Below, piece by piece: positions 30 to 4,728 of a stretch of DNA of 39,836 nt. The notes under the pieces are model-generated. The model ran no database searches. It saw only the letters and a program-made list of their open reading frames with translations, and had not been told where the DNA came from. The stretch's first letter is position 1. Each line of letters starts with the position of its first letter. Origin of the DNA: Kayfunavirus AN24P4; sequence record OZ035739.1; one strand, written 5' to 3'. A program made the position numbers and the translations under genes.

Positions 30-293
30 ATGACGCAGATGGACTTAGAGAAGTTCCTCTTAATGCTAGATACTGAACGTGCTCGACTCATGCTGCAAGA
101 CCTGCGGGATGACACTAAGCGTTCACCTCAGCTCTACAACGCCATTGAGAAGCTGCTTGCTCGTCACAACTTTGTGTTAAGCAAGGTGTCCGTGGACGAG
201 AAGACGCTGGCTGATATGGAGGCCCTGAACGCAGAGTACGATAAGGTGCTCTCAGCGACTGAGGATAATGACACCGGGTATGGTGTTCAATAA
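30..293 (+). CDS. small terminase subunit / DNA maturase A (T7 gp18-like)
   Basis: 87-aa ORF with aaaggagg RBS; N-terminal FLxMLDT...RSPQLYNAI region resembles T7 gp18; lies upstream of spanin and large terminase genes as in T7. Confidence 0.8.
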   Translation: MTQMDLEKFLLMLDTERARLMLQDLRDDTKRSPQLYNAIEKLLARHNFVLSKVSVDEKTLADMEALNAEYDKVLSATEDNDTGYGVQ

Positions 294-759: not shown

Positions 760-1177
760 GAGAGTGGTCCCTTGGCTAGTGGCAGGACTCCTGTTCGCCT
801 CTGGTTACTGGGTAGCTGACAATAAGTGGGAGGCTAAAGTAAATGAAGAATACATCACGAAACTTGAGGCACGAGAGAGTCAACGAACTGCTATCCAAGC
901 ACGAGTCGATGAAGTCTCAGCGGAGTGGCAGGACAAGATGTCCTCACTGGAAGGCTCTACTGATAGGATTATTAATGACCTTAACCGCGATAACAAGCGG
1001 TTGCTCGTCAAAGTCAAGACCTCAGGTCTCAGCGAGCCAGATTACAGTCGATGCTTCCCTAATGGTCGAGTCGAACTACACCCAGAGACTTCTAAAAGTC
1101 TTATCCGAATAACGCAAGAAGCTGACCTTAAGGAGAAAGCTCTACAGGAAACCATAAGGAGGTTGCGTGGCGAATAA
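737..1177 (+). CDS. i-spanin / Rz-like lysis protein (T7 gp18.5-like)
   Basis: Internal start of the 542..1177 ORF at ATG 737 preceded by aaggagg; [22 protein letters not shown] segment then [18 protein letters not shown] region resembling T7 gp18.5. Confidence 0.8.
843..1112 (+). CDS. o-spanin / Rz1-like lipoprotein embedded in +1 frame of the Rz gene (T7 gp18.7-like)
   Basis: ORF wholly inside the Rz gene in another frame; lipoprotein-type signal [17 protein letters not shown] with Cys lipobox; C-terminal VDASLMVE region as in T7 gp18.7; exact start uncertain (alternative M at 909). Confidence 0.65.
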   Translation: MKNTSRNLRHERVNELLSKHESMKSQRSGRTRCPHWKALLIGLLMTLTAITSGCSSKSRPQVSASQITVDASLMVESNYTQRLLKVLSE

Positions 1178-2936
1178 GAAAACACCTGCTGAAAGACAGG
1201 CAGAAATGACCAAAAGGATGAGGGATGACTTCGTGTTCTTCATCTTCGTTCTATGGAAAGCTCTGAGCCTTCCTGTTCCAACACGCTGCCAGATAGATAT
1301 GTGTAAGAAGCTGGCGGCTGGAGATAATCGCCGCTTCATCCTTCAAGCATTCCGTGGTATTGGAAAGTCGTTCCTGACCTGTGGTTTCGTGGTCTGGAAG
1401 TTATGGAATAACCCGGACTTGAAGTTCATGATTGTGTCGGCCTCAAAGGAACGAGCCGATGCGAACTCCATCTTCATCAAGCGAATCATCGACCTAATGC
1501 CTCAGCTTCAGGACCTCAAACCTAAGCAGGGACAGCGAGATGCGGTTATCAGCTTCGACGTTGGGCCAGCAAAGCCAGACCACTCACCTTCTGTTAAGTC
1601 CGTTGGTATCACTGGTCAGTTGACTGGTAGTCGTGCTGACATCCTGATTGCAGATGACGTGGAGGTTCCTAATAACTCTGCGACTCAGGCTGCACGAGAC
1701 CGTCTGTCAGAGCTTGTTAAAGAGTTCGACGCTATCCTGAAGCCGGGAGGTACAATCATCTATCTGGGTACTCCTCAGAACGAGATGACCCTGTATCGTG
1801 AGCTTGAAGGTCGTGGGTATACCACTACTATCTGGCCAGCTCGTTATCCACGCGACAGGAAGGACTGGCAGTCTTACGGCGACCGTCTGGCTCCTATGCT
1901 TCAGGCAGAGCTGGAAGAGGACCCTGAGTCCTTCTACTGGCGTCCGACTGATGAAGTACGCTTCGATGATACGGACCTGAAGGAACGTGAGCTGTCCTAC
2001 GGTAAAGCTGGCTTCGCTCTACAGTTCATGCTTAACCCGAACCTGAGTGATGCCGAGAAGTACCCTCTTAAGCTCCGTGACCTTATCGTAGCCGACTTGG
2101 ACCCAGCGTCCAGCCCAATGGTCTACCAATGGTTGCCGAACCCTCAGAACAAGCGTGAGGACGTTCCTAACGTTGGACTCATGGGTGACTCGTACCACAC
2201 GTATCAGACTGTAGGTTCTGCCTTCAGCTCATACACCCAGAAGATTCTGGTCATTGACCCTAGTGGTCGTGGTAAGGATGAAACTGGATATGCGGTACTG
2301 TACCAGCTCAACGGCTACATCTTCGCTATGGAAGTTGGTGGCATGCGTGGTGGTTATGAAGACTCTACGCTGGAAGCCTTGGCTAAGATTGGTCGTAAGT
2401 GGAGGGTCAACGAATACGTCATTGAGGGTAACTTCGGTGATGGTATGTACCTTGAGCTATTCAAGCCTGTAGCGGCCCGTATCCATCCTGCGGCTGTAAC
2501 TGAAGTGAAGAGTAAGGGTCAGAAAGAACTACGCATCTGTGACGTTCTGGAGCCTATCATGGGGTCTCACAGACTTATCGTTAACGCTGCTGCTATCGTC
2601 CAAGACTACCAGACAGCCTCTGACAAGGATGGTGTTCGTAACCCTATCTACTCTCTATTCTATCAGATGACACGTATCTCTCGTGAGCGTGGAGCCTTGG
2701 CACACGATGACCGACTTGATGCGCTGGCTATCGGTGTACAGTTCTTCGTTGAGTCGATGGCTAAGGATGCCAACAAAGGCGAACGTGAAGTCACTGAGGA
2801 ATGGCTGGAGGAACAGATGGAGAACCCACGGAAAGGCTTCGAGTCCATCCACACTGAGTTCTGGGACAATGGGGTCCGGGTAACTCACGATACGGACGAC
2901 GAGCTTGGACTAGGGTCATACGTTACGTTCCACTAG
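1167..2936 (+). CDS. large terminase subunit / DNA maturase B (T7 gp19-like)
   Basis: 589-aa ORF, GTG start after aaggagg; extensive collinear similarity to T7 gp19 ([48 protein letters not shown]). Confidence 0.95.
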
Positions 2937-2943
2937 CTGAATG

Positions 2944-2993
2944 AATAACTATAGGTGAAAGCTGCATGAATAAGCAGCTAGTAACCTATAGTT
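2944..2993 (+). repeat. compound inverted repeat immediately 3' of the terminase gene
   Basis: aactataggt (2947-2956) is the reverse complement of acctatagtt (2984-2993); inner hairpin agctgc-N8-gcagct; no U-run follows. Confidence 0.5.
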
Positions 2994-3030
2994 ACTACCA
3001 GTCTAACATACTGTTTTACAAGGAGTTTGG

Positions 3031-3053
3031 ACTTAACTATCACTATAGGGAAG
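3031..3053 (+). promoter_or_regulatory. phage RNAP promoter (phiOR-like, downstream of gene 19)
   Basis: acttaactatcactataGGGaag; matches the 23-bp promoter repeated 11 times in the window; +1 G about 3048. Confidence 0.75.
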
Positions 3054-3233
3054 ACCCCCGGTTACTTATAGTATTACTGTAGTGAATATACATATGCAGA
3101 CTTTATGCAAGACCTTAGGAGGCAGACTCCGAGTTCTTACCTAAGGCTTGCACCGATGGAAGGAGGGTGATATTAATCATAATCCCTCCAATACAGATAG
3201 TCACCGACCATAGATACAGGAGGTATGTAGCAT

Positions 3234-3392
3234 ATGGCAAAGACCAAAGCTGTACTTAAAGCTCTGGCGACCAATCGAGCTACATACAGGTTTCTTGCTG
3301 CTGTTCTACTTGCTGCTGGCGTTACTGCTGGAAGTCAGTGGGTCGGGTGGGTCGAGACTCTCGTATGTTCTCTGGTCTCTAAGTGTAATTAA
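3234..3392 (+). CDS. small hydrophobic protein at gene 19.5 position
   Basis: 52-aa ORF (below ORF-track cutoff) with ggagg RBS, after the phiOR-like promoter; hydrophobic FLAAVLLAAGVTAG segment; assignment by position only. Confidence 0.45.
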   Translation: MAKTKAVLKALATNRATYRFLAAVLLAAGVTAGSQWVGWVETLVCSLVSKCN

Positions 3393-3628
3393 CGCAATCA
3401 TGATAACAATCAACGAAAGGAGGTAGGGATGGACGAGGAGTCTTATGGGTCGTTCTCTGACGAAGATTATCAGACGGAGTGGGAATACGCGCATTGAAGA
3501 CCTAAGGTCAGTTCATAGCTGACGCTACTCTACTGACCTTAGCTACTGTAGTCAAGGACTTTAGGTAACACCTTAAGAGAAGCTCACTTAGGGTCATCCT
3601 ACTTATTGGTCTATCCTAGTGTCGCCTG

Positions 3629-3675
3629 ACCTACGGTCCTTGACCTACAGTGGCTGTGGCCTACAGTAGTGACGA
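3629..3675 (+). repeat. short direct repeats (ACCTACAG family) flanking the terminal repeat, right-end side
   Basis: gacctacggtccttgacctacagtggctgtggcctacagtag; analogous in position to the short ACCTAAAG-type repeats at T7 genome ends. Confidence 0.5.
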
Positions 3676-3705
3676 TGAGTTTTGGACCAAAAGTTTGAGA
3701 CCACA

Positions 3706-3900
3706 TCTCACAGTTCAAGAACCTCAAGTCTCCCCATAGGCCCTCTTTCAGTCCAGACCAATAGTCCCTACCCAGTCTATCATAAGGTTAGACCGATGGT
3801 CAAGACTTCAGGTCAACGATAGGTTGTGGCTATGGCTTAGGGAAGGACGATAGGTAGGGACTATTGGTCTGTCTTTGAGTCTCTATCTGTATCAGACCTT
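3706..3900 (+). repeat. probable direct terminal repeat / concatemer junction (collapsed single copy); boundaries approximate
   Basis: Begins with tctcacag (as the T7 left end TCTCACAGTG) and ends near gtctttgagtctctatctgtatcag resembling the end of the T7 terminal repeat; non-coding; lies between right-end genes and early promoters. Confidence 0.45.
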
Positions 3901-3902
3901 GA

Positions 3903-3985
3903 GTCACTACCTACAGTCTAACTACCTACAGTCATCGATCATCGGTAATGCCGCTACCTACAGTCAGAGACCTACGGTTAATAGA
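3903..3985 (+). repeat. short direct repeats (CTACCTACAGTC family), left-end side
   Basis: cactacctacagtctaactacctacagtcatcg...gctacctacagtcagagacctacgg; three to four copies of a CTACCTACAG core. Confidence 0.5.
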
Positions 3986-4230
3986 CACAAGGCTATAGAC
4001 TTAAGGTCTAAGACATGTTAGTCAAAGACTACATCCTCTTACACCATGGGGCCGACGATAGCTTAATCAATATTATTTCAAATTACCTATTGACTATAGG
4101 TCCAGATTATGGCCTAATAGCTTCCGTCAACACGACACGGCAACAACCGGATAGTGAAGACGCCTGGTCATCCCGGTTAAGTAGACAGCCTGATAAGTCA
4201 TACGAACAACAGGCAGATGACAGAAAGTAG

Positions 4231-4260
4231 TTGACAAGCAGTAACGATAAGATGTAAGCT
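4231..4260 (+). promoter_or_regulatory. candidate host sigma70 early promoter (T7 A2/A3-like)
   Basis: TTGACA (4231-4236), 18-bp spacer, TAAGCT (4255-4260); flanking sequence resembles the T7 A2/A3 region (gataagtagacagcctgataagtc ... gtaccacat); a second weaker candidate has TTGACT near 4090. Confidence 0.35.
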
Positions 4261-4449
4261 GTACCACATCGAAACAACGGTGACGACCGACACTGAAACG
4301 GTCTACCTGAAGTCCTCTGACTGAAGGGAATGCTCTTTAACAATCTGGATAAACTCTTAATGTGCGCCGATAGCGACTAACTACAGGGTCTTTGAGTCTA
4401 CATCTGAAGGCCCTGACTGATAGTCACTAACAACCTAAGAGGATTCATT

Positions 4450-4728
4450 ATGAGACTGAACAAAGCTACAGCAGAAGCCTTTCGCAAGGAGCTTGAATCA
4501 AGATTATTGTGTGGAGTGGCGGAAGGAGCCGCTCGATATAAAGAGAATGGTCTAACGTTCAAGCGCTTTATGTGGGATTGCTATCACGGAGTGGGCCATA
4601 AAAAGTCGCAGGAAATAATCACCAGCAACAATGCAGAAGTGCAAGTGATAGGAGGATATATGGCTAACGTGAAGGATTCACACATCGAGACCATGCTTAA
4701 GAATGCACTTAAAGATGTAGCCTACTAG
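4450..4728 (+). CDS. hypothetical early protein (92 aa), first gene of the early operon, upstream of ocr
   Basis: ORF with RBS taagagga 7 nt upstream; no match to T7 proteins I can recall; position 0.3 in T7 is occupied by ocr, here shifted one gene downstream. Confidence 0.65.
   Translation: MRLNKATAEAFRKELESRLLCGVAEGAARYKENGLTFKRFMWDCYHGVGHKKSQEIITSNNAEVQVIGGYMANVKDSHIETMLKNALKDVAY

Follow-up and report, generated by a model that had tools for sequence, protein, structure and literature searches.

Gene order and signals around the junction

The stretch of DNA analysed (39,836 nucleotides, Kayfunavirus AN24P4, record OZ035739.1; referred to as the window) is a complete genome of a Kayfunavirus, a K1F-like phage of the T7 type, opened about 30 nucleotides upstream of gene 18. 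The two ends of the window adjoin in K1F, where its last 700 and first 700 bases form a single uninterrupted BLAST alignment with 95.8% identity. Because the ends are contiguous in K1F, the window is a closed and permuted genome. The terminal repeat occurs in it as a single copy and the K1F alignment runs across the join, in agreement with an earlier note on this DNA that described the window as permuted, with the terminal repeat collapsed to one copy. The features discussed below are, in order of position:

30..293, plus strand: gene 18, small terminase (DNA packaging protein)
1167..2936, plus strand: gene 19, large terminase
3031..3053, plus strand: promoter for the phage RNA polymerase, equivalent to phiOR
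3234..3392, plus strand: gene 19.5, the last gene before the junction
3627..3667, plus strand: left short-repeat array, three TGRCCTACRGT units
3672..3735, plus strand: near-invariant block over the left cut site
3706..3884, plus strand: direct terminal repeat of 179 bp, one collapsed copy, predicted concatemer junction
3754..3772, plus strand: left arm of the inverted repeat (altered, putative recipient)
3791..3801, plus strand: small central palindrome
3853..3871, plus strand: right arm of the inverted repeat (unchanged, putative donor)
3885..3891, plus strand: ATCTGTA pause-like motif
3895..3978, plus strand: right short-repeat array
4091..4127, plus strand: first early promoter for the host RNA polymerase (by homology)
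4231..4269, plus strand: second early promoter for the host RNA polymerase (by homology)

The Pfam matches show that the window encodes a T7-type terminase pair, gp18 and gp19. Gene 18 matches PF11123 (DNA_Packaging_2, E = 3e-12) and aligns with gene 18 of K1F, and gene 19 matches PF22530 (Terminase-T7_RNaseH-like, E = 1e-37). By analogy with T7, cutting of the junction would be the task of the large terminase encoded by gene 19. The phiOR-equivalent promoter carries TCACTATAGGGA at 3040-3051, and EcoDS1 has its phiOR at the same relative position. This is one of six such sites in the window, all six on the plus strand, and by homology the transcripts starting there are expected to run rightward through gene 19.5 and into the terminal repeat. 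Gene 19.5 was taken from the list of open reading frames and encodes 52 amino acids; the homologous coding sequences in EcoDS1 and SAKp10309 are annotated as gp19.5.

From 3393 to about 4090 the list of open reading frames holds no convincing gene. Two reading frames cross the repeat (3682-3822 and 3875-4021) and neither has a Pfam match. They are unlikely to be coding because the relatives differ by single-base insertions and deletions, and where related records have coding sequences that span the repeat, these are probably not genuine. The two sites annotated as 'host RNAP promoter' in EcoDS1 (469-505 and 609-647) served to locate the early promoters by homology. A scan of 2900-4600 for consensus sigma-70 promoters and terminators was uninformative in this respect, with four promoter-like sites compared to 2.6 expected and no terminators, and a search of 3000-4600 against Rfam at a permissive threshold gave no family match. 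The junction has gene 19.5, which follows gene 19 and phiOR, on one side and the early promoters for the host polymerase on the other.

The terminal repeat and its boundaries

The T7 left-end motif TCTCACAG, which the earlier note had located at about 3706, begins exactly at 3706. In alignment, this position corresponds to base 1 of K1F, EcoDS1, Vec13, Peacock and SH3. On the right, EcoDS1 and Vec13 end in ...GAGTCTCT, at 3884 in the window, while the K1F record ends in ...GAGTCTC at 3883, one base short of these two, and SH3 ends in ...GAGTCTCTATCT, 4 nt beyond 3884. The annotations are of the same extent: EcoDS1 has a terminal repeat at 1-178 and a 'concatemeric junction' at 177-184, Vec13 has a long terminal repeat at 1-179, and the repeat of Peacock (1-179) is a PhageTerm prediction. 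For Citrobacter phage SH3, the ends come from run-off sequencing on virion DNA, and the repeat of K1F is cited as 179 bp in the same study (PMC4925675). Homology to these relatives with mapped or annotated ends predicts a left physical end at 3706 and a right physical end at 3884, or at 3888 if the phage is SH3-like, which leaves a margin of 4 nt on the right side, depending on whether the boundary is of the K1F or the SH3 type. The T7-like terminal-repeat sequence that had been noticed earlier is thus present, although it ends at 3884 or possibly 3888 and not at about 3900 as proposed. The virion genome is predicted to exceed the deposited record by about 179 bp, with its ends at 3706 and 3884-3888, and would measure 39,836 + 179 bp, or about 40,015 bp.

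The junction region matches 393 phage records, the best of which is Kayfunavirus AN17P1 with 96% identity over 1.15 kb. A core of 221 nt matches 229 phage records, mostly Kayfunavirus (K1F-like, Studiervirinae) of Escherichia, Salmonella and Enterobacter. The Kayfunavirus repeats (K1F 179 bp, EcoDS1 178 bp, Vec13 179 bp, Peacock 179 bp and SH3 183 bp) are homologous to that of the window over the entire repeat, and the Escherichia members of the genus are 84-99% identical to it. They share the first base of TCTCACAG..., a right boundary with ...GAGTCTCT on its left side and ATCTGTAT on its right side, and a location after gene 19.5 and before the early promoters. The window differs from the other members in the number of flanking short-repeat units and in its left arm, which is rewritten from AAAGGCCCTACCCC to AATAGTCCCTACCC and gives a perfect inverted repeat of 19 bp. 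Judged from these alignments, the region is almost certainly the concatemer junction, with the terminal repeat, of a K1F-like phage of the T7 type. The earlier identification of a genome terminus is well founded in that the start and the boundaries match the mapped or annotated ends of relatives. The junction is a standard and already described feature of Kayfunavirus, to which this genome adds a member.

A conservation profile of 27 distinct junctions has its maxima at both boundaries, 3672-3735 on the left and 3876-3892 on the right, the latter covering the right cut and the pause motif, while the interior of the repeat is far more variable. The left block extends over 34 nt to the left and 30 nt to the right of 3706, contains the palindrome TTTTGGACCAAAA at 3680-3692, and is presumed to be the region where the terminase recognises and cleaves the DNA. 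At the right boundary, the last T of the repeat is followed by ATCTGTA (T-ATCTGTA at 3884-3891), which agrees in six of seven bases with the class II motif ATCTGTT of T7 and lies directly right of the repeat, as in T7. None of the 31 aligned relatives departs from CTATCTGTAT. The class II pause and termination signal of T7 RNA polymerase has ATCTGTT as its conserved core, and the T7 concatemer junction is a natural example of this signal; the motif follows A, C or T and its seven bases are described as 'strictly conserved' (bioRxiv 10.64898/2026.02.12.705533). HATCTGTW is not enriched in the window (11 found compared to 8 expected), and the relevance of the pause motif is drawn solely from its position and invariance. 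No paper on both packaging and the pausing of T7 polymerase at the junction came up in a literature search.

Arrays of short repeats had also been proposed on both sides of the repeat, and they are there. The unit CCTACRGT is found 16 times in the window compared to 2.8 expected, a number reached in none of 100 shuffles. Seven of the 16 sites, all on the plus strand, flank the terminal repeat at 3630-3667 and 3910-3978. The left array has a counterpart in the CCTAAAG array to the left of the T7 repeat. The right array consists of ACCTTGAGTC, three ACCTACAGTC units and ACCTACGGT, and T7 has a CCTAAAG array on this side as well. The copy number in the right array differs between relatives; AN17P1, for example, has two extra units of 15 nt at 3905.

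The repeat of T7, as given in the T7 record, is 160 bp long and common to both ends. It starts with TCTCACAGT, has CCCCCATAGG near its start and a palindrome at its centre, and ends with ...CCCT followed by ATCTGTT; CCTAAAG arrays flank it. As in T7, the repeat of the window carries TCTCACAGT at its left end, CCCCATAGG lies close to the start, the centre holds a small palindrome, and the final CT is followed by ATCTGT; the repeat is flanked by arrays and preceded by phiOR and gene 19.5. The central palindrome, read from the sequence, is GACC-GAT-GGTC in the window, AGACC-TTC-GGTCT in the SFPH2 clade and GTCAACC-TTC-GGTTGAC in T7. Of the 179 aligned positions, nevertheless, just 88 are the same in the two repeats. 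The short-repeat arrays have CCTACAG as their unit in the window and CCTAAAG in T7, and the right end reads ...CTCT followed by ATCTGTA in the window and ...CCCT followed by ATCTGTT in T7. The T7 repeat aligns poorly at the arms of the inverted repeat, and no matching pair of arms was seen when the alignment was read by eye. A hairpin in T7, said to have been described by Chung, Nardone and Hinkle in 1990, reportedly sits to the left of the repeat and not within it.

By analogy with T7, replication would produce head-to-tail concatemers with one repeat at each junction. The gp18/gp19 terminase would cut at the near-invariant sequences of both repeat boundaries, and phage RNA polymerase starting from phiOR would be expected to pause at the ATCTGTA right of the repeat and thereby aid the cutting. 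DNA synthesis would then duplicate the repeat, leaving a copy at each end of the virion DNA. The single copy of the 179-bp repeat in the record would reflect a circularised assembly that was subsequently cut open upstream of gene 18.

The inverted repeat and its distribution

Within the repeat, the left arm CAGACCAATAGTCCCTACC (3754..3772) and the right arm GGTAGGGACTATTGGTCTG (3853..3871) are 19 nt long, 100% complementary and separated by 80 nt, as the earlier note had reported. The 19-mer is found in the window only at these two arms, even when three mismatches are allowed, with 0.02 chance matches expected.

An alignment of 31 distinct repeats was made from the window, 21 phages in GenBank and nine metagenome contigs. 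The window is the only one with CAGACCAATAGTCCCTACC as its left arm. Among the 30 others, 21 have exactly CAGACCAAAGGCCCTACC and the rest have minor variants of it; the common form is also given as AAAGGCCC. AN17P1 and three IMG/VR contigs have the same right arm as the window. In the alignment the right arm varies, starting with GGTAGGG..., GGTGGGG..., GGTGGTG..., GGTTGGG... or GGTCGGG... and continuing with ATTGG, ATGGG or ATATG, without compensation in the left arm. The CAGACCAAAGGCCCTACC arm of the relatives pairs imperfectly with the right arm, so that a quasipalindrome was already present in the genus. The longest perfect inverted repeat within the terminal repeat is 19 nt in the window compared to 6-12 nt in the 30 others.

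Searches of larger collections gave the same picture. The left arm of the window had no match in phage records, including 162 records that match a 50-nt probe, and a 25-mer specific for this arm was absent from IMG/VR and from a collection of bacterial and archaeal genomes. The IMG/VR contigs that match the bare 19-mer (three contigs) hold one copy each, as the right arm. A 25-mer from a conserved part of the repeat was found in IMG/VR in three stretches on two contigs, and a metagenome scan rendered nine further loci; all of these have the common left arm. In the sequences compared, the perfect palindrome is thus an allele private to this genome.

It was observed that complementary units within the repeats look like the short repeats, in opposite orientation. 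A layout of the whole repeat as nested palindromes was considered and rejected; the complementary units, read by eye from the sequences, come in crossing order.

Origin and significance of the palindrome

The window differs from its nearest relative, AN17P1, within the terminal repeat only at 3762-3770. In AN17P1 the left arm is CAGACCAA-AGGCCCTACC, which has one bulged base and one mismatch when set against the complement of the right arm (CAGACCAATAGTCCCTACC), and the arms pair as 8 + 2 + 7 bases. Two changes in the left arm of the window, an inserted T at 3762 and a G to T substitution at 3765, fix the bulge and the mismatch; the right arm has stayed the same. Every combination of a substitution with a single-base insertion was enumerated for the AN17P1 repeat, and of these 386,640 double mutants only two gave a perfect inverted repeat of at least 19 nt, and that of the window is one of them. 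A third difference, CCCC to CCC just after the left arm, is a polymorphism in run length that is also seen in ST31, mg014, CHX131, ESh23 and an IMG/VR contig (L038). This loss of one C could come from a polymorphic ancestor or from a misaligned return to the template.

The comparison with AN17P1, although a single one, suggests that the palindrome probably arose as a quasipalindrome template-switch mutation. The quasipalindrome of the genus would in this isolate have had its left arm rewritten to match the right arm, apparently through a single switch of template in the course of DNA synthesis. A spacer of 80 nt is long, and the arms are believed to be much further apart than in model or reporter quasipalindromes. 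Template switching that turns quasipalindromes into perfect repeats is an established class of mutation, studied for example with an E. coli lacZ reporter carrying an 18-bp quasipalindrome (PMC7202029). The window resembles the known cases (Ripley 1982; lacZ reporters, PMC7202029) in that a cluster of changes has made an imperfect repeat perfect by copying one arm into the other. It differs from the lacZ reporters in that the event is read from a natural comparison and that it sits in the terminal repeat of a phage.

The inserted T and the G to T change might instead be an artefact of sequencing, assembly or polishing in a collapsed repeat with double coverage, in which case the real phage would have the common left arm. 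The allele has been seen in this sequence alone, terminal repeats are collapsed and often troublesome in assemblies, and the change from CCCC to CCC is one of homopolymer length, a typical type of error. However, a random error would not be expected to copy the exact complement of the other arm, given how few double mutants in the enumeration do so, and the remainder of the repeat is identical to AN17P1. The arms of the common allele share reverse-complement words of just 8 and 7 nt, which are judged too short for the k-mers that assemblers usually work with. An artefact is therefore considered quite unlikely. Import of the left arm by recombination from an unsampled relative that already had the allele is another way for it to have appeared in this genome, and it would be in line with the mosaic genomes of Kayfunaviruses and with flanking arrays that differ between close relatives. 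It is nonetheless very improbable: the allele was found neither in the aligned relatives nor in the 162 records with a match to the 50-nt probe, the altered tract is just about 9 nt with flanks identical to AN17P1, and a donor allele would itself require a templated origin.

A different question is whether the perfect inverted repeat has been selected in this strain as a hairpin or cruciform that aids concatemer processing or duplication of the repeat, a role similar to that given to it in the earlier note. In the T7 model the repeat is expected to be single-stranded during the formation and processing of concatemers, which would allow a hairpin to form. When the repeat of the window is folded as single-stranded DNA, the 19-bp stem dominates the predicted structure (-27.2 kcal/mol, z = -2.9), and in AN17P1 the predicted minimum-energy fold contains the imperfect stem homologous to it. 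In most repeats the long-range complementarity is modestly above chance (z from 0.5 to 6), and over the 31 sequences the arms pair in 82% of cells compared to 26-46% when the partners are slid. The high degree of pairing is, however, explained by the fact that both arms are conserved sequences. Paired positions do not covary (0.052 compared to 0.048 in shuffles, with 136 of 500 shuffles as high), and cells changed on both sides number 2 compared to 1.4 expected. The variable positions instead break pairs without compensation: of the 31 sequences, 22 lack pairing at 56/215, 13 lack it at 64/206 and none is paired at 60/210. The predicted fold of the AN17P1 repeat (-22.1 kcal/mol, z = -0.8) is like that of shuffles, and the perfect form is found in one of 31 distinct repeats and in none of the searched collections. 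Extrusion of a cruciform from duplex DNA is unlikely across a spacer of 80 bp. A selected structure is for these reasons improbable, and the role in concatemer processing is not borne out by the comparison with relatives. The best explanation of the sequences is that the 19-bp inverted repeat would not be part of the conserved packaging machinery. As for the imperfect repeat that is widespread in the genus, it is possible that it has some function.

An ordinary junction combined with an origin of the palindrome by template switching is, taken as one statement, likely, and the template-switch allele is probably neutral. In the T7 model, the terminal repeat is synthesised one additional time when the DNA is packaged. 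A link between the template switch and this extra synthesis of the repeat in T7-type packaging is plausible but speculative. The rewritten arm might even be a natural record of a fold-back of the single-stranded repeat in vivo, in which the T7-type DNA polymerase switched templates across the 80-nt loop during duplication of the repeat or formation of concatemers, but this is rather unlikely. If it were true, templated mutation would have hotspots in the terminal repeats of T7-like phages, and the perfect 19-bp repeat might measurably alter the processing of the ends, for instance through a hairpin in the displaced strand or through cleavage by endonuclease I or SbcCD.

A striking perfect palindrome can be a one-off allele, which calls for caution before such a structure is read as a functional packaging signal. 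If the allele is confirmed in reads, it would be a clean natural case of long-range quasipalindrome correction in the terminal repeat of a phage, and it could be used to probe how the repeat is copied during packaging of the T7 type.

Variation in the short-repeat arrays and the terminal repeat

The short-repeat arrays on either side of the terminal repeat (CCTACRGT-type units) change rapidly in copy number and in unit sequence among close relatives. At window position 3905, in the right array, the nearest relative AN17P1 carries two additional 15-nt ACTACCTACAGTCTA units, and the two sequences are also unlike in the left array at 3652-3672. The terminal repeat itself varies in length. Pipis and LM33P1 have terminal repeats of about 202 bp owing to a 24-nt insertion, CGTTACTGCTCCTTGCAGTCACAG, directly after the left arm of the internal inverted repeat (repeat positions about 69-92), and the terminal repeat of IMGVR_UViG_3300045988_000139 contains a tandem of about 24 nt in three copies, GGTGGGACTATTGGTCAACGATAGGT, derived from the right-arm region.

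Annotations and records matching the terminal repeat

Several GenBank records of relatives annotate coding sequences for a 'hypothetical protein' over the terminal repeat, for example:

MZ234011, 361-564 and 574-732, two coding sequences
PQ464628, 565-762, one coding sequence

Single-base indels occur between relatives in this region, and a Pfam search with the window equivalents of these coding sequences gave no match, which together suggest that they are non-genes. Two records that bear Enterococcus phage names, Enterococcus phage EFA-1 (MT350292) and Enterococcus phage IME_EF3 (PQ520054), are about 92-93% identical to this coliphage terminal repeat and are probably wrongly labelled or contaminated.

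The right end and the pause-like motif

The experimentally mapped right end of Citrobacter phage SH3 lies 4 nt past that of EcoDS1 and Vec13 (...CTCTATCT compared with ...CTCT) and falls within the ATCTGTA motif, which follows the terminal repeat directly in the window (3885-3891). The reports disagree on the right cut, either in the position itself or in its mapping. In the whole window the degenerate form of this class II pause-like motif, HATCTGTW, is found three times on the transcribed plus strand (at 3884, 8843 and 14809) and eight times on the minus strand. The motif may be avoided on the sense strand, but the counts are too small for judgement.

Small palindromes and inverted repeats

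Three further symmetrical elements are found in and to the left of the terminal repeat:

3502-3512 and 3532-3542, 11-nt perfect inverted repeat, CTAAGGTCAGT / ACTGACCTTAG, with a loop of 19 nt
3680-3692, palindrome with the sequence TTTTGGACCAAAA, located 14-26 nt to the left of where the left cut is predicted
3791-3801, central palindrome of the terminal repeat, GACC-GAT-GGTC

The palindrome beside the left cut is invariant in all four aligned junctions, and each of its positions is at least 90% conserved in a profile of 27 distinct junctions. It is a candidate element of the site that the terminase recognises, or else of a hairpin intermediate resembling that of T7.

The 11-nt inverted repeat lies about 165-205 nt left of the terminal repeat, in a block that is kept in all relatives. 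EcoDS1 has the same arms but a changed loop, and the arms may be short-repeat-like units in opposite orientation.

At the position of the central palindrome, the SFPH2 clade has AGACC-TTC-GGTCT and T7 has GTCAACC-TTC-GGTTGAC. The structure that is really retained among T7-like repeats may be this small central hairpin.
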